Below are positions 6,792 to 37,191 of a DNA stretch of 64,000 nt, piece by piece. Origin of the DNA: Escherichia phage EPIMRB01. The notes under the pieces are model-generated. The model did no database searches, was not told the DNA's origin, and saw only the letters and a program-made list of their open reading frames with translations. The position numbers and the translations under genes are program-made. Positions within the stretch are counted from its first letter, which is position 1. Each line of letters begins with the position of its first letter. Where the stretch lies: the sequence record PQ657784; one strand, written 5' to 3'.

Positions 6792-7086
6792 TCAGCTATA
6801 ACGATAACACTCGTTTGATTTACGTTTAGCAACTCGTTGAGAAGTATTATAATCAAAATCATCGTCAATGTAAACTGATTTTTTCAACTTTCTTACTTCA
6901 CCACGTAATTGGCGATTTAGCTCATCTTTAACTTCTGAATCAATACCTTTCATTCTACGCCATTTATCTGAGCGAAAAATGTTTTCAACCATATCTTTAT
7001 GACTTACCCCATCAGGAGCTTTACGCTTTCCGAAATAGTCATAATCACGCACTTTTAAGTCTTTACGACGATACGTTTTACCCATG
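6792..7086 (-). CDS. Hypothetical protein (about 98 aa from internal Met with AGGA RBS)
   Basis: ORF 6792..7130 trimmed to the Met that has an upstream RBS. Confidence 0.45.
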
Positions 7087-7260
7087 GAGTTTAATTTCCT
7101 TAGCAACTGAACTAAATACAGCACGATCACAAATCATCTGTTTATGTAACTTGAGTATAAGATAATAAACTTCAAAACCGTTTACATAAGTAACACGAAC
7201 AACATTACCATTAATAAAATAATATTGTCCCTTTTTAATCTCTTTATCAACCACAACCAT
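7078..7260 (-). CDS. Hypothetical protein, 60 aa
   Basis: ORF downstream of an early promoter. Confidence 0.4.
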   Translation of the reverse strand: MVVVDKEIKKGQYYFINGNVVRVTYVNGFEVYYLILKLHKQMICDRAVFSSVAKEIKLHG

Positions 7261-7290
7261 ATCAAATCCTCAAAGGCAATTCATATGTTA

Positions 7291-7340
7291 ATAATACCAC
7301 AGTTTGAACTTGTTGTAAACAACTTTGTGAAATTATTTTA
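7291..7340 (-). promoter_or_regulatory. T4-type early promoter (-35 GTTTAC, -10 TGGTATTAT, A/T-rich upstream element)
   Basis: Reverse complement reads AAAATAATTTCACAAAGTTGTTTAC-N15-TGGTATTAT. Confidence 0.55.
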
Positions 7341-7400
7341 GGGAATGATAAGAAGGGAACGATAGCTTAGAATGGTAATATACAGAATGTGAGAAAGAAA

Positions 7401-7414
7401 GGCCCAGAGGGCCC
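7401..7414 (-). terminator. GC hairpin (ggccc-agag-gggcc) downstream of the nrdH-like gene
   Basis: Inverted repeat on plus strand. Confidence 0.35.
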
Positions 7415-7417
7415 GTC

Positions 7418-7711
7418 TTAGTCTTCTATGATATCTCTATCATATCCAAGTGAAATGAGAGTTTCTTTGAAGTGTTTAATGTTCTTTTGTCTAGAATCAT
7501 TAATGAAAATGACTGGATAACGAATGTTAAGAGATGTGAATCCAGCGCGTTTAGCAAGAGATACAATCAGTGGACGATCATACTCAATCTTACCATTATT
7601 TGTAAGAACTTTATAGAAAGTAAAAGGAGCATTGAGCTCCTTTAGAAGTTTTGTAACTGATTGACATCCAGGACAACGACCTACTTCATCTGGAATTCCA
7701 TAGACTTCAAT
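7418..7711 (-). CDS. nrdH: NrdH-like glutaredoxin/thioredoxin-fold protein; start codon uncertain (possibly non-AUG)
   Basis: CPGC redox motif in KIEVYGIPDEVGRCPGCQ; no in-frame ATG close to the fold start (ATT at 7711 or a far-upstream start). Confidence 0.55.
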   Translation of the reverse strand: MEVYGIPDEVGRCPGCQSVTKLLKELNAPFTFYKVLTNNGKIEYDRPLIVSLAKRAGFTSLNIRYPVIFINDSRQKNIKHFKETLISLGYDRDIIED

Positions 7712-7712
7712 C

Positions 7713-8024
7713 TTATTCTTTAAGTTCGAGTTTTGTTCCACGAGAAATAATTCCTTGGTAAGCCCAATAAGGAGGATTAACAGAATCCTCACCAGAGTTT
7801 TCTTCAGGAAAATAAACCTGGATAACGAAGCCGGATTCATCAAAGGTGAAATAAGTAGTAGGCAGTTCACCTAACAAATCGGCACGAGCGTTGATTTCTT
7901 CGAGGTCTTGTTCACGTCCAGCCCAGAAGCTTGGGTTCAGACTACATTCATAGAAATAATAGTCATTACCGAACATATCAAAACCATTCCAACTCTCTAC
8001 TACATACCGCTCAAAACTAATCAT
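7713..8024 (-). CDS. Hypothetical protein, 103 aa
   Basis: ORF. Confidence 0.5.
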   Translation of the reverse strand: MISFERYVVESWNGFDMFGNDYYFYECSLNPSFWAGREQDLEEINARADLLGELPTTYFTFDESGFVIQVYFPEENSGEDSVNPPYWAYQGIISRGTKLELKE

Positions 8025-18669: not shown

Positions 18670-19638
18670 TTATTTCAGAAGAGTAACCTCAGCGATTTCT
18701 TCCCAACCGTTTTTGTCGGTCATAATAAAGTCAGCAAGATAAAGAGCAGTACGCAGTGAAACATTGCGTAAACGATTAACATTGACTTTCATCCATGATA
18801 ATGCTTTATAAGTTTCTTCATCAGAAAGACCGCGCTTTTGCATCATGTCAGTTGAAAGAATAACATCTTCAACCCTGACCATAATTTCTTCATTAGTGTG
18901 AACACCTAAATCTAAATAAACTGAGCGGGACACTAATGCTTGTAAATGTGGAGCAAGTTTAGTACCACGGTCTAATTCGCGGTCAATGTCAACGTTTGTG
19001 ATAAAAACAATCGTTCCTTTAAATTCAAACTCACGCTCAATGCCTTTTTCTTCTAAGTAAGAAGATGCAGTGCTCCAGCAGACTTTACGGGTCTCTCCAG
19101 TGTCCAGAGCAGCTTTCAGAAGATTAAGAATGTCCATATCAGAGAAAACATCCACATCATCAATCAAAAGGACAGAATTCTCTTCACGATTATTCCAAAG
19201 CTGCTCATAAAGACCAATACCAGAGATTTTACCGTTAATGCTTTTATACTCAATGTATCCAATATCATTTGCTTTATTTAAAGCTTTATCTAAAGAATAC
19301 GTTTTACCAATACCTGCTGCACCAGAGATAATTAATGAACGAATGTTTCCGTTAATAATACCATTCGTCATCATTCCCATAACATTAAATCTTTTATTAA
19401 TGCGGGTTTTCATATCTTCATATGATTCTTTAACTTCTTCAACTTTTACACCGTCATATGAAATGTCTGATTTGTAAACCCAAACACCGCGACGTTTACC
19501 GTCAATTTCAACAAAAACTTTACCATCTCCTTGTGCATCTACCGGAGCATTATCAGGGAACCACTCACCTAAGAGTTCAAAAGTTCCAGAGATTTCTTTG
19601 CCAAAGTAGATACCCTTATTGATAGTTACAGTTTTCAT
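18670..19638 (-). CDS. P-loop NTPase (AAA+-like ATPase), about 322 aa
   Basis: Walker A GAAGIGKT; Walker B VLLIDDVD; sensor-like FITN; start at the Met after promoter and GGAGAAT RBS. Confidence 0.65.
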   Translation of the reverse strand: MKTVTINKGIYFGKEISGTFELLGEWFPDNAPVDAQGDGKVFVEIDGKRRGVWVYKSDISYDGVKVEEVKESYEDMKTRINKRFNVMGMMTNGIINGNIRSLIISGAAGIGKTYSLDKALNKANDIGYIEYKSINGKISGIGLYEQLWNNREENSVLLIDDVDVFSDMDILNLLKAALDTGETRKVCWSTASSYLEEKGIEREFEFKGTIVFITNVDIDRELDRGTKLAPHLQALVSRSVYLDLGVHTNEEIMVRVEDVILSTDMMQKRGLSDEETYKALSWMKVNVNRLRNVSLRTALYLADFIMTDKNGWEEIAEVTLLK

Positions 19639-19672
19639 TTTATTCTCCAAATCCGTATCAGTTGATAGTTGT

Positions 19673-19725
19673 ATAGTACCATAAAGCTTTATGCTTGTAA
19701 ACCGTTCTGTGAAAAATTTTTGAAA
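19673..19725 (-). promoter_or_regulatory. T4-type early promoter with conserved leader
   Basis: Reverse complement reads TTTTTCACAGAACGGTTTAC-N17-TACTATACAACTATCAACTG. Confidence 0.55.
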
Positions 19726-19726
19726 T

Positions 19727-19751
19727 AAAAAAAGGGAGCCCGAAGGCTCCC
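19727..19751 (-). terminator. Intrinsic terminator (GGGAGCC-UUCG-GGCUCCC followed by a U run)
   Basis: Plus strand aaaaaaagggagcccgaaggctccc immediately after the stop of ORF 19754..20767. Confidence 0.7.
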
Positions 19752-19753
19752 TA

Positions 19754-20767
19754 TCATTTATAATAACTTCGGTGGTTTTCAAGATAGACCTTCTCAAGGA
19801 AGTCATCCCAGAAACTCATATCTACTTTTTGCTGCATACCGTTCTTAGAAGCTTCAGTAGATGCTGCTTCTACTTGATCTACCACATCTTCCAAAAACTC
19901 TTGAACTATTTTAAATGGATGTTTACCCAACTTCACGTCGAGAATAAATGGAGCATCTTGGAGTGGATAAACCAAGTCGCCAGTTTTGTAAATTTCCAAT
20001 AGTTGGAGTCCACCACGACAAGCATGACTTAGTGCTTTCCAATCAATACCTTCATTAGCTTCGGCTTTACGAGCACGTTCACCATATTCAGCATCTAATT
20101 TGTTCAGTGACTGCTTAAGCTCAATAAGAGAAAGCGTTGTCTGATATTTACGACCCAGCACTGTATAGAACGTTTGTGGACCTGTTTTCTCATGATTATG
20201 GAACACCCATTCACAGAATTCGTTTTCTGGAAGACGATGCTTAATATCTTCAATTTTAGTGCGACGTTGTCCTTGTGTTCCATCTTCTCGGTAGACATTC
20301 CGTTGATCAGGAATTTGATTAATTACTTTCAACACATCACGTAATGCAGCTAGACGAGAACCTTTAACACCATATTTAGAGGCTTGCTTGCGGACATATC
20401 CTAAATAGGATTTCATGTTAGTCGTATAAAAACGAGAACGGTTGTCTTGAATAAACTTCCACACATCAGGCAAATCAGATTTAACCACTAGTTCAGGTGG
20501 AGTGTGAAGCATATCCAATGCTACAGTTTCACCATCTGCTGCTAATTTAAAGAAATACTTAAGACTATACAATTCGTGGTCAATATCATCTTTAGTGTTT
20601 TTAGATGATGTGTTGTTGGTATTTTTACTCATGTGCTCTTTGACATTTCCGATAAGAATATCGCGAGCAGGAGGAACAAAGATTTCTTTAAAATCTACAT
20701 CAGATTCTGGGGTAGAAGTTCCATAAAGATGACTACCGAAATAGCTTTTCATTACTGTTTTCATCAT
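19754..20767 (-). CDS. Pol-beta-superfamily nucleotidyltransferase-like protein, 337 aa
   Basis: N-terminal FGSHLYGTSTPESDVDF fits the G[SG]-x(9-13)-DxD signature; no other domain recognised. Confidence 0.55.
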   Translation of the reverse strand: MMKTVMKSYFGSHLYGTSTPESDVDFKEIFVPPARDILIGNVKEHMSKNTNNTSSKNTKDDIDHELYSLKYFFKLAADGETVALDMLHTPPELVVKSDLPDVWKFIQDNRSRFYTTNMKSYLGYVRKQASKYGVKGSRLAALRDVLKVINQIPDQRNVYREDGTQGQRRTKIEDIKHRLPENEFCEWVFHNHEKTGPQTFYTVLGRKYQTTLSLIELKQSLNKLDAEYGERARKAEANEGIDWKALSHACRGGLQLLEIYKTGDLVYPLQDAPFILDVKLGKHPFKIVQEFLEDVVDQVEAASTEASKNGMQQKVDMSFWDDFLEKVYLENHRSYYK

Positions 20768-21225
20768 TCAGCCTTATATTCAATAACAGGACATACTTTA
20801 GCTTTACGAGCTTTTAAAAATTCAACGATAATCGATTTCTTGGGTTGAATAGGAGGTAAACCTTTATTTTTCCTATCAATGTTTTCTACGTGTAAAGCAT
20901 AATCCTTTTTCCATTTATAATCTTTATATTTTTCACGCAAATGTACAGGAATAACAAATGAACCAATAATAAGTAAAACAACCAAAAGCGCAAGTATAAA
21001 TGCTGATGGAAGCAAAGTCCATAAACTACCGAAAATAAGCCATCGTTGTAGGCTTTCTGCACAAATAATTGTTAGCCCTACAAGTATAGCACATCCAAAA
21101 ATAGAAACGAAAAATGTAGGAATGACAATAGACCAAAAATATGCGCATAATGTCTTAGGTCGTTGCCATTCATCGTTAAACAATTTGAATAATTTATAGT
21201 GCCAAGAGTTTTCATTAATAATCAT
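20764..21225 (-). CDS. Membrane protein, 153 aa (two or more TM helices)
   Basis: Hydrophobic segments YFWSIVIPTFFVSIFGCAILVGLTIICA and LLPSAFILALLVVLLIIGSFVIP. Confidence 0.55.
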   Translation of the reverse strand: MIINENSWHYKLFKLFNDEWQRPKTLCAYFWSIVIPTFFVSIFGCAILVGLTIICAESLQRWLIFGSLWTLLPSAFILALLVVLLIIGSFVIPVHLREKYKDYKWKKDYALHVENIDRKNKGLPPIQPKKSIIVEFLKARKAKVCPVIEYKAE

Positions 21226-21227
21226 AA

Positions 21228-21749
21228 TTATCCTTTCATTGAAGGCGTAACGGTTGTTAAATACTTAATCATAGCTTCAGCTTCTGATTTTGATAATGAA
21301 ATTTCTTCACCGTTTTGACGAATAGAAATAAAATCCGGATGACGGTCACCACCAGCTTTTAAAACACACATATAAGTATCAGTTTCGCCTTCAATATTTG
21401 AAATGATTGAAGCAGTTCCGCATGAATGTGGTTTTTGATAAATCAATACAGCTTTTCTTCCACCGTTTGACTGTTCATAGGCTTTTAATACATCAAGCAA
21501 ATCAGTTCTTTTATCAATAGCTAAAATGTTATTTTCATCTTCAATGTTAAATCCTTCGGATACTTCATAAAGCGTTACCCATAAATCACCGATGTCAATA
21601 ACAGCATTTACTTTTCCACGGCTTTCAAGAGTATGACAAATTTTCTTGATTTCGTCATAACTCATTTTAATAATATCATCTCCTTGACTAAGAAAGATGT
21701 CATTTTTAAATTCAACACGAATTAAACCACTTCCACTTGAAATAAACAT
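21228..21749 (-). CDS. Hypothetical protein, 173 aa; paralogue of 21756..22310
   Basis: C-terminus SKSEAEAMIKYLTTVTPSM resembles TKDEAIALKTYLDSVIPTM of its neighbour. Confidence 0.55.
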   Translation of the reverse strand: MFISSGSGLIRVEFKNDIFLSQGDDIIKMSYDEIKKICHTLESRGKVNAVIDIGDLWVTLYEVSEGFNIEDENNILAIDKRTDLLDVLKAYEQSNGGRKAVLIYQKPHSCGTASIISNIEGETDTYMCVLKAGGDRHPDFISIRQNGEEISLSKSEAEAMIKYLTTVTPSMKG

Positions 21750-21755
21750 ATTTCC

Positions 21756-22310
21756 TCACTTTGAAATCATAGTTGGAATGACAGAATCAAGATAAGTCTT
21801 TAGCGCAATAGCTTCGTCTTTGGTAAATGTAATGATATGTGATCGAAAATCATCAATTTGACGAATAGATACTACATCTCCCTCTTCATAGCATTTTGAC
21901 ACATTTAAAATAGTTTCATCATTCTGATCGCAAGCGTTAGTAATAATAGCATTGCAATTTTTGAGCCATTTTAAACTATGTTTTCTTTCATTAGAATAAT
22001 AAAAATATTTAATCTTAGCTATAAAACTATCCCAATGGATAACTGATAAACACATTGACTCGCTTTTAATATTAAATCCTGGGCATGAAGAATAAAAATG
22101 AATTTTATGCTCATCATTAATGCTTACAATTTTATCAGTGTAAGCATATTCAATTTGAGTTAAACGAACAATTTCACTAGGTGTAAAATACAGCATATCG
22201 TCTTCTTGCGTCAAACGATACATATTATTTACTTTTTCTATAGCCAATTCACCAAAAAGTGGACTAACTTCTAATACTAATCGTTTCATATTAATCCTTT
22301 TTATTGGCAC
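21756..22310 (-). CDS. Hypothetical protein, 184 aa; paralogue of 21228..21749
   Basis: Shared C-terminal motif with the downstream gene. Confidence 0.55.
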   Translation of the reverse strand: MPIKRINMKRLVLEVSPLFGELAIEKVNNMYRLTQEDDMLYFTPSEIVRLTQIEYAYTDKIVSINDEHKIHFYSSCPGFNIKSESMCLSVIHWDSFIAKIKYFYYSNERKHSLKWLKNCNAIITNACDQNDETILNVSKCYEEGDVVSIRQIDDFRSHIITFTKDEAIALKTYLDSVIPTMISK

Positions 22311-22569
22311 GAATTTGTTCTAAAATTTTAGAGTATTCCTTTGTATCAGATTTACGTACAATCGATACACTATACGGCATACTATCGGTGTCTTTTATAA
22401 AGCGTTCCAAATGACATTCTAATAAAATTTCTGGATTATAAATCGTGTACATCAAATTACCTGTTGCTCCACGATATTGACAGATTTCTACTGATTGAAC
22501 ACCATTCCATAATTTTGTTAAGACCAAATCACCTACTTCTAATTTAGGAAAGCCCATGTTATTCACCAA
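22291..22569 (-). CDS. Hypothetical protein, 92 aa
   Basis: ORF. Confidence 0.45.
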   Translation of the reverse strand: MVNNMGFPKLEVGDLVLTKLWNGVQSVEICQYRGATGNLMYTIYNPEILLECHLERFIKDTDSMPYSVSIVRKSDTKEYSKILEQIRANKKD

Positions 22570-22744
22570 TTAAAGTTTCAATATAAGAATCAAGATTTAC
22601 TTTAGCTTCTTCCATAAGAGTTTTGTATTTAATCTTGTTGGCATGTCCGGAGAAAGCTGATTCATCAATAATTGTTGATGTATGAACAGCTTTACTATAC
22701 GTCTCAATTAATTCTCTTAATTTAAAAGCCTGCTCACTTGTCAT
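22559..22744 (-). CDS. Hypothetical protein, 61 aa
   Basis: First ORF after the early promoter at 22876-22910. Confidence 0.4.
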   Translation of the reverse strand: MTSEQAFKLRELIETYSKAVHTSTIIDESAFSGHANKIKYKTLMEEAKVNLDSYIETLIGE

Positions 22745-22875
22745 TACATACTCCTCTGAATCATATCAATAATGTTGTTCACCAAATTATAAGTAAACAT
22801 TGGGTAATTATATTGAATCATCACATACACAACAAACAAAACTTTCATTCTCTTCTCCTTGGCAGTTGACAAGAT

Positions 22876-22910
22876 TACTATACCATAACCTTGCCAACTT
22901 GTAAACCATT
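22876..22910 (-). promoter_or_regulatory. T4-type early promoter (GTTTAC-N17-GTATAGTAAT)
   Basis: Reverse complement reads GTTTACAAGTTGGCAAGGTTATGGTATAGTAAT. Confidence 0.5.
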
Positions 22911-23082
22911 AAATGACGTTTTCGATAAAATTCTGAAGCTTTGTATGAGCATCAACCATGATTTTCATTTCTTCCTTTGCGAAAGCTGTGCCTCTTTCAC
23001 GAGAAGAACATTCATAGTCAGAAACTGCATTAGCATATTCTTCAATTAGCTTCATTAAAAACATCTGCTTTTCAGTTTTCAT
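22909..23082 (-). CDS. Small hypothetical protein, 57 aa (below track cutoff)
   Basis: ATG at 23082 to TAA at 22909, read by eye: MKTEKQMFLMKLIEEYANAV... Confidence 0.3.
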   Translation of the reverse strand: MKTEKQMFLMKLIEEYANAVSDYECSSRERGTAFAKEEMKIMVDAHTKLQNFIENVI

Positions 23083-23266
23083 TATTCCACCTAATCATTT
23101 CAAGATATTGAACTAACTTAGCTTTGGATTTATCCAAATCCTTTTTAGCTGTTTCTATACCGTCGTATGAATATCCTTCACAATGCTCAACTGCTAATTG
23201 ATATGAATCTATTTCAACATCACGTGCTAATTTAATGATTTTTTCAAACTGTTCGTGTGTTAGCAT
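23072..23266 (-). CDS. Hypothetical protein, 64 aa
   Basis: ORF. Confidence 0.4.
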   Translation of the reverse strand: MLTHEQFEKIIKLARDVEIDSYQLAVEHCEGYSYDGIETAKKDLDKSKAKLVQYLEMIRWNNEN

Positions 23267-23268
23267 AC

Positions 23269-23508
23269 TTAAACTCTCGTATTATGATCGATAATTTCAT
23301 CAAGAAACATATCTAACGCTTCTAAAGCATTATCAACTTTAGTTTCAAAGTCTTTAATGCCTTTATTCGAAATACCCGATGAATACCAAGCAAAGTCAAT
23401 CAGCTCTTCATCTGCTTTACGAATTGAAGCCACTAATTCCTTGATTTTATCTGCTTGCTCTATACTAATCATTATTCTACCACATATGACAGAGAGAATA
23501 TTGCACAC
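23269..23508 (-). CDS. Hypothetical protein, 67-79 aa (start ambiguous)
   Basis: ORF; alternative Met at 23472 would remove the overlap with the upstream gene. Confidence 0.4.
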
Positions 23509-23660
23509 GCCATGTGAGTTGCAACTTCATCACACATATTATAACGTTTCTTAAGAAGTTCTACAAGTTCTTCACTAGTAACTTCATCCATGTCGACGAA
23601 AAAATCACCATTAATGATGACGTAGATATTTCCTTCTTGATTGAGTGCTTCAATTTTCAT
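23472..23660 (-). CDS. Hypothetical protein, about 62 aa (start at the Met after promoter and GAGGAG RBS)
   Basis: Track ORF 23472..23705 trimmed to MKIEALNQ. Confidence 0.4.
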
Positions 23661-23687
23661 GATGTTCTCCTCTTTATCCGATAGTTG

Positions 23688-23725
23688 TATAGTATCACAG
23701 CTCAAACGGAAAGTAAACCGGTAAA
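23688..23725 (-). promoter_or_regulatory. T4-type early promoter with conserved leader
   Basis: Reverse complement reads GGTTTAC-N17-GATACTATACAACTATCGGATAAAGAGGAG. Confidence 0.55.
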
Positions 23726-23728
23726 ATG

Positions 23729-23751
23729 AAAAAAGTCTCCCGAAGGAGACT
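23729..23751 (-). terminator. Intrinsic terminator (AGUCUCC-UUCG-GGAGACU followed by a U run)
   Basis: Plus strand aaaaaagtctcccgaaggagact just downstream of ORF 23756..24142. Confidence 0.65.
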
Positions 23752-36363: not shown

Positions 36364-36439
36364 TGGTCGAGGCAGTAGGGATCGAACCTACGACCTAGGA
36401 CTTAGAAGGTCCTTGCTCTTCCTTCTGAGCTATGCCTCG
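36364..36439 (-). tRNA. tRNA-Arg (anticodon UCU)
   Basis: Cloverleaf folded by eye: 7-bp acceptor, D-stem GCTC/GAGC, anticodon loop CTTCTAA, T-loop TTCGATC, encoded CCA. Confidence 0.8.
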
Positions 36440-36443
36440 GATT

Positions 36444-36518
36444 TGGCGGACGTGATAGGATTCGAACCTATAACCAATCGCTTAACAGGCGATCGCTCTG
36501 CCATTGAGCTACACATCC
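36444..36518 (-). tRNA. tRNA-Asn (anticodon GUU)
   Basis: Acceptor GGATGTG/CACGTCC, D-arm AGCTCAATGGCAGAGC, anticodon loop CTGTTAA, T-arm, CCA. Confidence 0.7.
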
Positions 36519-36522
36519 AAAT

Positions 36523-36609
36523 TGGTGGGGAGTGATGGAGTCGAACCACCCGAGTCGCAATGACAATGAATTTACAGTCCACACCGCTACCTCTACGGGA
36601 TAACTCCCC
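36523..36609 (-). tRNA. tRNA-Tyr (anticodon GUA), long variable arm; D-arm non-canonical
   Basis: Perfect acceptor GGGGAGT/ACTCCCC, anticodon loop CTGTAAA, T-arm GGTGG-TTCGACT-CCATC, CCA; D-stem pairs only weakly. Confidence 0.6.
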
Positions 36610-36618
36610 AAATTAATT

Positions 36619-36693
36619 TGGTGGCCCTGGGTGGAATTGAACCACCATCTGGCGATTATGAGTCGCTTGCTTGAACCTTCCAGCTACAGGGCC
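36619..36693 (-). tRNA. tRNA with CAU anticodon (tRNA-Ile2-like; Met not excluded)
   Basis: Acceptor GGCCCTG/CAGGGCC, anticodon loop CTCATAA, T-arm, CCA. Confidence 0.7.
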
Positions 36694-36694
36694 T

Positions 36695-36770
36695 TGGTGC
36701 TGATTGACGGAATCGAACCGCCGACCTTCTCATTACAAGTGAGTTGCTCTTCCTTCTGAGCTAAATCAGC
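36695..36770 (-). tRNA. tRNA-Thr (anticodon UGU)
   Basis: Acceptor GCTGATT/AATCAGC, D-arm AGCTCAGAAGG, anticodon loop CTTGTAA, T-arm, CCA. Confidence 0.8.
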
Positions 36771-36775
36771 AAAGC

Positions 36776-36865
36776 TGGCGGAGGCGATAGGATTTGAACC
36801 TATGAGTCGCCGGAGCGACTGCCGGTTTTCAAGACCGGTGCATTAAACCACTCTGCCACGCCTCC
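36776..36865 (-). tRNA. tRNA-Ser (anticodon UGA), long variable arm
   Basis: Acceptor GGAGGCG/CGCCTCC, anticodon loop CTTGAAA, long extra arm, T-arm GGTTCAAATCC. Confidence 0.8.
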
Positions 36866-36867
36866 AG

Positions 36868-36941
36868 TCTCCATACAAGGATTTGAACCTTGGACCTCCT
36901 GATCCCAAATCAGGCGCTCTACCAAACTGAGCTACACGGAG
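36868..36941 (-). tRNA. tRNA-Pro (anticodon UGG), CCA not encoded
   Basis: D-arm AGCTCAGTTTGGTAGAGC, anticodon loop TTTGGGA, T-arm GGTTCAAATCC; acceptor includes G-U pairs. Confidence 0.7.
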
Positions 36942-36951
36942 TAAATTAAAT

Positions 36952-37025
<74 letters not shown>

Positions 37026-37030
37026 AAATT

Positions 37031-37119
37031 TGGTGCGAGAAGTGGGACTCGAACCCACAAGGAAATCATTCCGCAGCATTTTAAGTGCTGTGCCTTTACC
37101 AATTTGACCATTCTCGCGC
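37031..37119 (-). tRNA. tRNA-Leu (anticodon UAA), long variable arm
   Basis: Acceptor GCGCGAG/CTCGCAC, anticodon loop CTTAAAA, long extra arm, T-arm GGTTCGAGTCC, CCA. Confidence 0.8.
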
Positions 37120-37191
37120 TGGGAATAAAGGACTTGAACCTTTGCATCCTGGAATCAAAATCCAGTGCCTTACCAACTTGGCTAATTCCCA
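37120..37191 (-). tRNA. tRNA-Gln (anticodon UUG), CCA not encoded
   Basis: Acceptor TGGGAAT/ATTCCCA, anticodon loop TTTTGAT, T-arm GGTTCAAGTCC. Confidence 0.75.

Follow-up and report, generated by a model that had tools for sequence, protein, structure and literature searches.

The window analysed here is a 64,000-nt stretch of the genome of Escherichia phage EPIMRB01 (sequence record PQ657784), a Tequatrovirus, and it covers the usual T4 early region, with gp46/47, a-gt, 55, nrdH/G/D, 49, pin and nrdC to nrdC.11, continuing with the mobD.x genes, rI, tk, vs, regB, denV, e, the tRNA cluster, 57B and genes 1/3. The entry labelled "RNA ligase" in the comparison genome encodes 152 aa and occupies the 57B position. 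The gene of interest is the orthologue of T4 nrdC.11 (hereafter its product is called the NTase), the last gene of a minus-strand transcription unit (Table 1). Over a region of 3.8 kb the sequence matches Escherichia phage AUBRB02 at 100% identity; for many Tequatrovirus genomes the figure is about 96-97%. No hydrophobic segment was found in the NTase, for which the highest 19-residue Kyte-Doolittle mean is 0.61.

Table 1. Genes and putative regulatory elements of the transcription unit that ends with the nrdC.11 orthologue (window positions).
Feature	Position	Strand	Description
nrdC.11 orthologue (NTase)	19754..20767	minus	Single ORF, ATG start, 337 aa; RlaP-family (PF10127) Pol-beta-fold nucleotidyltransferase
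Intrinsic terminator	19752->19733	minus	AGGGAGCC-UUCG-GGCUCCCU + U7; 8-bp G+C-rich stem; one base past the NTase stop
Two-TM protein (phrog_944)	20764..21225	minus	153 aa; hydrophobic segments aa 25-60 and 62-98; directly upstream of the NTase
y05I-like paralogue pair	21228..21749 + 21756..22310 (together 21228..22310)	minus	173 + 184 aa; same transcription unit as the NTase; mobD.1 family
Candidate T4 early-type promoter	22905->22877	minus	TTTACA-17-TATAGT, extended-10 TG; for the unit ending with the NTase
T4 early-type promoter-like site	19701->19673	minus	TTTACA-17-TACTAT with TG; past the terminator; marks the end of the NTase unit

The TGA of the 153-aa protein overlaps the NTase start codon (ATGA), which suggests translational coupling, and the two y05I-like proteins upstream share 28% identity (E 1.6e-9), each containing both the T4_y05I_N and the T4_y05I_C Pfam domains. 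The arrangement proposed in the initial annotation, in which the NTase gene is co-transcribed with a two-TM membrane protein and a paralogue pair and is followed by a strong terminator, is thus what we found at the locus, including a UUCG-loop hairpin with its U tract immediately beyond the stop codon. Terminator-like sites were more frequent in the scan than in shuffled sequences (8 versus 2.4 +/- 1.7). For promoter-like sites there was no overall enrichment (30 versus 25.3 in shuffles), and the promoter calls therefore rest on the quality of the sites (TG-extended, 17-nt spacer) and on their position. The promoter consensus suggests early expression of the NTase unit. The second promoter-like site would drive the next gene, a nrdC.10-like AAA ATPase with a likely true start at 19638. 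A functional link between the NTase and this downstream ATPase was considered and rejected: a terminator and a promoter lie between the two genes, and in the KVP40-like and phiKp_32 loci they are not evidently paired.

In T4, nrdC.11 likewise lies between nrdC.10 and the mobD region. The gene directly upstream differs, since T4 has the homing endonuclease gene mobD, overlapping nrdC.11 by 17 nt, at the position held by the two-TM membrane protein in EPIMRB01. Co-transcription with the membrane protein therefore looks incidental, and a functional link between the two products is not evident. As in T4, the neighbours are unrelated early genes, and no Pnkp or RNA ligase gene was found near the NTase in the window.

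The NTase is 95% identical to the reference entry of T4 NrdC.11 (NP_049709.1) and 96% identical to the protein of re-sequenced T4. The about 13-16 substitutions lie mainly in the 149-172 loop of an insertion described below. The comparison with T4 nrdC.11 advised in the initial annotation thus identified an orthologue, and with it the implied novelty of the gene was lost: RefSeq labels NP_049709.1 "nucleotidyltransferase", a match between nrdC.11 orthologues and the COG3541 nucleotidyltransferase domain dates from 2006 (PMC1524935), and a 2025 preprint assigns T4 NrdC.11 to the RlaP family, in cluster 5 of its SSN (PMC12776372). Our searches agree with these assignments, with matches of the NTase to PHROG 388 "nucleotidyltransferase" (E 9e-136) and to Pfam PF10127 RlaP (43.9 bits, E 3e-11, above the gathering score of 23), the latter confined to NTase residues 7-135 and profile positions 23-142 of 249. 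Neither PADLOC nor NCBIfam returned a match to the NTase. Since public annotation (RefSeq, Pfam, PHROGs) and the literature already cover the gene, its fold class and its family, the finding as such is already known, and what the present analysis adds is modest: a predicted third catalytic carboxylate, D63; the delimitation of a T4-type long subfamily; and its frequent tandem arrangement with canonical RlaP in RNA-repair loci of cellular genomes.

The catalytic motifs were assessed in two homologue alignments, of 129 sequences (25-96% identical to the query) and of 384 sequences. The N-terminal segment FGSHLYGTSTPESDVDF corresponds to residues 10-26 and the acidic stretch DDIDHE to residues 60-65. 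In the larger alignment G11 was found in 383, S12 in 384, D23 in 383 and D25 in 383 sequences, so that each of these residues of the GS...DxD signature of the Pol-beta superfamily recognised in the initial annotation is kept in at least 383 of the 384 homologues. D61 is kept in 375 of the 384, and position 63 is Asp in 381 and Glu in the other three. Nearly invariant residues in the 129-sequence alignment comprise G11, S12, D23, D25, N57, D61 and D63, and a C-terminal set consisting of R231, D242, W243, K244, H248, R251 and Q255.

An AlphaFold2 model built from the alignment (mean pLDDT 92, pTM 0.77) places these residues in a predicted NTase domain with an alpha/beta palm-like fold (aa ~1-115). 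G11-S12 falls between a predicted strand (3-10) and a helix (12-15), as in the hG[GS] motif of the superfamily, and D23-V-D25 lies at the start of the predicted strand 24-31, giving the Dx[DE] metal-binding pair. Two further strands are predicted at 45-49 and 62-68, the second of which bears D63. The remainder of the model consists of helices (119-149), a beta-rich insertion (155-209) and a helical C-terminal domain (214-336). The predicted Pol-beta palm-like fold and the conservation of the motif, which is invariant rather than part of a non-conserved loop, answer the two objections that the initial annotation had raised against its own reading, and membership of the NTase in the Pol-beta nucleotidyltransferase superfamily (Pfam clan CL0260) is supported.

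For comparison with canonical RlaP, a profile was made from 10 full-length PF10127 matches (e.g., E 1e-77, profile positions 1-248 of 249). Alignment of the NrdC.11-clade profile with this profile by hhalign (93% probability, E 3e-7, residues 3-132) pairs G11-S12 with G30-S31, D23/D25 with D42/D44, and D63 with D75 of canonical RlaP, all of which are invariant among the 10 canonical sequences. Since it aligns with the invariant D75 in this profile-profile comparison, and lies on a predicted strand, D63 is the predicted third catalytic carboxylate of the NrdC.11 clade, in keeping with the suggestion that the DDIDHE segment could supply this residue. Invariance of D61 is specific to the NrdC.11 clade, with Val or Leu at the equivalent position of canonical RlaP.

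Canonical RlaPs, such as the protein encoded in the Pseudomonas rtcB-rlaP-rtcA operon, thus resemble NrdC.11 in having GS, DxD and a third Asp in a homologous NTase domain, and also in having an NTase domain followed by a C-terminal helical domain, which in NrdC.11 is predicted. The NrdC.11 type differs from them in being about 80 residues longer, in its beta-rich insertion and in the additional clade-invariant D61. Sequence homology to canonical RlaP is detectable only in residues 3-135 and not in the C-terminal half: the hhalign match ends at residue 132, and neither the C-terminal 125 aa alone nor the insertion alone has a Pfam match. Many shorter viral NTases (230-290 aa) superpose along the whole model (TM normalised to target 0.56-0.93), in agreement with a two-domain plan common to the predicted structures, to which an insertion is added.

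Relatives in the PDB were not detected by sequence, either with the single protein or with the 129-sequence profile, and the PfRlaP crystal structure was absent from the matches in the PDB copies searched. The kanamycin nucleotidyltransferase ANT(4') and the NTase-like protein 3c18 are 10-12% identical to the NTase, with no HMM-level relationship; enzymes of this type adenylylate small molecules, and their genomic contexts are unrelated to that of the NTase. Hailong HalB (9dbh), a 217-aa minimal NTase that makes oligodeoxyadenylate in defence, has neither the insertion nor the C-terminal domain, and shares 17% identity and no common context with the NTase.

Homologues of the NTase were found in 1,564 phage records, from T4-like phages of Escherichia, Klebsiella, Aeromonas, Acinetobacter and Vibrio and from some jumbo phages, and clustering of the global protein set at 50% identity places them in 3,404 clusters. 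For canonical short RlaP the phage records number just 81 and include no T4-like phage; T4-like phages therefore carry the long form only. A scan of cellular genomes, with one genome per species, gave 141 relatives, and 80 loci were kept. The relatives at these loci are full-length (residues about 2-330) and 31-54% identical, and come from Desulfobacterales, Nitrospirota, Chlamydiales, several archaea and Alphaproteobacteria (e.g., chromosomal contigs of Bradyrhizobium and Allorhizobium). The presence of full-length relatives in bacteria and archaea indicates that the NrdC.11-type clade is not phage-specific.

Neighbours in the 80 loci were identified by calling ORFs and then clustering them, with no function presupposed. 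The dominant neighbour was the canonical 250-aa RlaP, present in 25 of the 80 loci and, in 22 of those 25, encoded 11-280 nt downstream on the same strand. RtcB was encoded within 6 kb in 10 loci, the Pnkp ligase domain (PF16542) in four and a Ro60-type vWA protein in two; at least one of these four neighbours occurred in 31 of the 80 loci, and none of them within 6 kb in the other 49. As a single-copy gene would fall in a 12-kb window of a 4-Mb genome in about 0.3% of cases, fewer than one of 80 loci would be expected, on a rough estimate, to have RtcB by chance, versus the 10 observed. Linkage to RtcB and Pnkp is a property that NrdC.11-type relatives have in common with canonical RlaP. The tandem arrangement of the two types in 22 loci implies that the NrdC.11 type (SSN cluster 5) is a subfamily paralogous to canonical RlaP (cluster 1a), and argues that the long and the canonical proteins are functionally non-redundant.

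Several divergent viral relatives have similar neighbours. On a 370-kb viral contig the upstream gene, which overlaps that of the homologue, encodes a PF18143 "HAD domain in Swiss Army Knife RNA repair proteins" (HAD_SAK_2, E 2.5e-22), and an ATP-dependent ligase and a Metallophos phosphoesterase are encoded downstream. Tpt1/KptA (E 4e-38), a Macro domain and an RNA_ligase (26.4 bits, slightly below the gathering score of 27) are encoded within 5 kb of the homologue on a 264-kb viral contig, and in Vibrio phage 1.084.O the overlapping upstream gene encodes a PolyA_pol head (PF01743, CCA-adding/PAP class; E 4e-14). ORFs of 82-91 aa located immediately upstream of the homologue in three divergent phages had no Pfam match, and no Pfam matches are on record for the neighbours of the homologue on a 915-kb contig. 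The association with RNA-repair genes holds for the relatives of the NTase, and not at the EPIMRB01 or T4 locus itself.

RlaP was reportedly first described by Burroughs and Aravind in 2016. The biochemistry of the family comes from two Pseudomonas RlaPs, of P. fluorescens and P. aeruginosa, which are encoded between rtcB and rtcA and belong to SSN cluster 1a (Carruthers, Fatma and Huang, bioRxiv, December 2025; PMC12776372). These enzymes add 1-2 NMPs (or dNMPs) to an RNA 3'-OH, do not act on DNA or proteins, and prefer Mn2+ or Co2+ over Mg2+; a crystal structure has an NTase domain and a C-terminal helical domain (PMC12776372). Given an annealed mimic of a cleaved tRNA, they act on the 5' half in preference to the 3'-terminal acceptor end, and they partly rescue the aminoacylation of a tRNA that, prior to its ligation, lacks one anticodon-loop nucleotide (PMC12776372). 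The family thus acts on RNA 3' ends, and the making or mimicry of nucleotide signals, one of the roles offered for the NTase in the initial annotation, found no support.

We consider it rather likely, by analogy with these enzymes, that the NTase extends RNA 3'-OH ends by one or a few nucleotides in a template-independent manner and supports the repair of tRNA or other RNA as a counter-defence. In such a mechanism two metal ions, probably Mn2+, would be held by D23, D25 and D63 and would activate the RNA 3'-OH, and one or a few NMPs would be moved from NTPs to the RNA end, template-free, in a cleft that conserved basic loops (K131-x3-K135-x2-R138; R231, K244, H248, R251) may line. The NTase would put back nucleotides that cleaved tRNAs or other RNAs have lost to trimming, such as the wobble nucleotide that RloC-type anticodon nucleases excise, and phage Pnkp and Rnl1 would then regenerate a functional tRNA by healing and sealing. 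RNA repair as a viral counter-defence has its founding example in the T4 Pnkp/Rnl1 system, which is directed against PrrC (PMC2610378), and the role proposed for NrdC.11 would be a counter-defence of the same kind in the same lineage of phages. NrdC.11 is not among the known components of T4 tRNA repair, and its gene does not adjoin pseT or rnlA; it would supply the nucleotide-restoration step that classical T4 repair lacks.

[quoted passage not shown] A member of an NMP-adding family in >1,500 T4-like phage genomes is an obvious candidate answer to RloC-type nucleases. The NTase would be a non-essential accessory in this role, and the nrdC.11-mobD.3 segment can be deleted in T4 (PMC9825161), as expected for an accessory function.

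By analogy with the bacterial enzymes, we infer both that the T4-type enzyme shares RlaP activity and what its in vivo target would be. The substrate specificity of NrdC.11-type proteins could differ from that of canonical RlaP, as neither Pfam nor the canonical-RlaP profile gives a match in the C-terminal half or in the 155-209 insertion. The divergent C-terminal half and the tandem arrangement with canonical RlaP together suggest a substrate or role different in detail from those of the characterised enzymes. A more specific proposal, which we put forward only tentatively, is that of a functionally distinct 'long RlaP' subfamily, set apart by its unique beta insertion and divergent C-terminal domain, whose members would cooperate with canonical RlaP in RtcB/Pnkp loci of bacteria and archaea, perhaps by forming a heteromer or through complementary nucleotide or substrate specificity, and would act alone in T4-like phages as a third component of tRNA repair, re-adding the nucleotide removed by RloC for Pnkp and Rnl1.

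Other activities would also be compatible with parts of this evidence. Maintenance of the 3' end (CCA) of phage or host tRNAs, with the NTase complementing or replacing the host CCA-adding enzyme and taking no part in anticodon-loop repair, is unlikely, although full-length tRNAs are labelled by RlaPs, which can extend any RNA 3'-OH by 1-2 nt (PMC12776372), EPIMRB01 carries 10 tRNA genes, and the homologue in Vibrio phage 1.084.O overlaps a gene of the CCA/PAP class. RlaPs have little NTP specificity and prefer the 5' tRNA half over the acceptor end, and the cellular neighbours include the ligases RtcB and Pnkp, which are required for internal breaks and not for end maturation. The Pfam scan, moreover, found no match to the PolyA_pol head (PF01743) in the NTase, and the CCA-adding class named in the initial annotation is not supported for this protein.

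Nucleotidylation of a protein or small molecule, after the manner of kanamycin and lincosamide nucleotidyltransferases or of the MNT antitoxins that AMPylate HEPN toxins, could, for instance, render a host toxin or metabolite harmless, and the dissimilarity of the C-terminal half to canonical RlaP would leave room for such a substrate. We regard this activity as improbable: RlaP is the sole homology at the sequence level, bacterial RlaPs leave E. coli proteins unlabelled (PMC12776372), the relatives are found in RNA-repair loci rather than in toxin-antitoxin or resistance loci, and PADLOC gave no matches.

General tailing of RNA, in which short 3' tails on host or phage mRNAs or sRNAs would alter their stability during takeover, has slightly poorer prospects still. 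RlaPs act on many RNAs of total E. coli RNA, including rRNA-sized species (PMC12776372), the region is rich in RNA-directed functions such as regB, and the promoter consensus points to early expression of the NTase, but addition by RlaP ends at 1-2 nt (PMC12776372) and the conserved linkage is to repair ligases and phosphatases rather than to decay factors. A function in making or mimicking an (oligo)nucleotide immune signal, either cGAS/DncV-like as the initial annotation had envisaged or as a HalB-like oligodeoxyadenylate decoy against Hailong-type defence, is very improbable, given that no sequence or structural match to the CD-NTase/SMODS/cGAS catalytic core was found and PADLOC returned nothing, that the similarity to HalB is at the level of a minimal NTase and is nearly equalled by the scores of 3c18 and KNTase, that characterised family members yield no cyclic or oligonucleotide products and use no DNA acceptors (PMC12776372), and that NrdC.11-type relatives occur in RNA-repair contexts.

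At D61, which is invariant in the clade, the reference sequence of T4 NrdC.11 carries Asn, which might be taken for an inactive T4 allele. This was rejected, the residue being Asp in three independent re-sequencings of T4, which also correct a nearby Pro and an ambiguous X in the reference NrdC.11; the Asn is an error of the old reference and has no biological meaning.

Among the 80 bacterial and archaeal loci with full-length NrdC.11-type relatives, 22 encode a canonical RlaP of about 250 aa directly downstream of the long nucleotidyltransferase (NTase) and in the same orientation, and this pair is often accompanied by RtcB or Pnkp. The long NTase and the canonical RlaP are paralogues, and their tandem arrangement is conserved. 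A search of BFVD with the AlphaFold2 model of the window NTase returned significant structural matches that included baculovirus HE65 proteins and several giant-virus nucleotidyltransferases (Klosneuvirus, Terrestrivirus, and Yasminevirus), suggesting that RlaP-like NTases are widespread in eukaryotic viruses as well.

The two lowest-confidence stretches of the model of the NTase (window 19754-20767, minus strand), residues 131-140 and 231-240 with pLDDT of about 69, coincide with strongly conserved loops rich in Gly, Lys, and Arg: K131-Y-G-x-K135-G-x-R138 in the first stretch and R231 to G240 in the second. These loops are plausibly mobile and could bind RNA or NTP. An RNA-repair NTase could act on, or benefit, the ten tRNAs of the window (see table).

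Relative to the window NTase, the T4 reference NrdC.11 (L005:8436-9446, corresponding to NC_000866 55435-56445) carries Asn at the clade-invariant position D61, Pro at position 80, and an ambiguous X at position 101. Three independent T4 re-sequencings (MT984581, HM137666, and OZ209023) have D, T, and V at these positions, as does the window NTase. Judging from these sequences, Asn61, Pro80, and X101 are likely errors of the 1990s reference entry that were inherited by NP_049709.1.

The slot adjoining the NTase upstream varies among T4-like phages, with a two-TM protein in the window versus a homing endonuclease in T4. The Pfam matches of the two y05I-like paralogues of the window carry the description 'putative transcription factor'; within the 47-58 kb stretch of T4, mobD.1 (181 aa) is the single gene at the equivalent position. 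Among the small ORFs further upstream, similarity was detectable only between the 61-aa ORF at 22559-22744 and the 79-aa ORF at 23269-23508 (34% identity, E 5e-4).

Features of the NTase neighborhood and the tRNA cluster in the window, and of the corresponding regions in T4 (L005, reference segment of NC_000866), and in two cellular loci (L035 and L059)
Feature	Coordinates	Strand	Remarks
nrdC.10-like AAA ATPase, mechanical ORF	window 18670-19806	-	378 aa; downstream of NTase
Terminators either side of NTase transcription unit	window 19733-19752 and 23734-23751	-	G+C-rich hairpins, UUCG tetraloops
Two-TM protein, phrog_944	window 20764-21225	-	153 aa; ATGA stop/start overlap with NTase
Two tandem y05I-like paralogues	window 21228-22310	-	Pfam T4_y05I_N and T4_y05I_C
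Run of small ORFs	window 22559-23705	-	57-79 aa; upstream, same orientation
Ten tRNA genes	window 36364-37191	-	Arg, Asn, Tyr, Met, Thr, Ser, Pro, Gly, Leu, Gln
mobD, HNH homing endonuclease	L005:9430-10209		T4; 17-nt overlap with nrdC.11
Tandem example	L035:6001-6906 with 7186-7953		
Tandem example	L059:6001-6978 with 6977-7777		

The mechanical nrdC.10-like ORF extends back across the terminator and the 3' end of the NTase. Its true start is almost certainly the ATG at 19638, which would give a protein of 322 aa, because the PHROG 1250 match begins only at residue 57 and a promoter-like site is located at 19701 to 19673. Matches of this ATPase were AAA-, STAND-, and clamp-loader-like, all of them weak.
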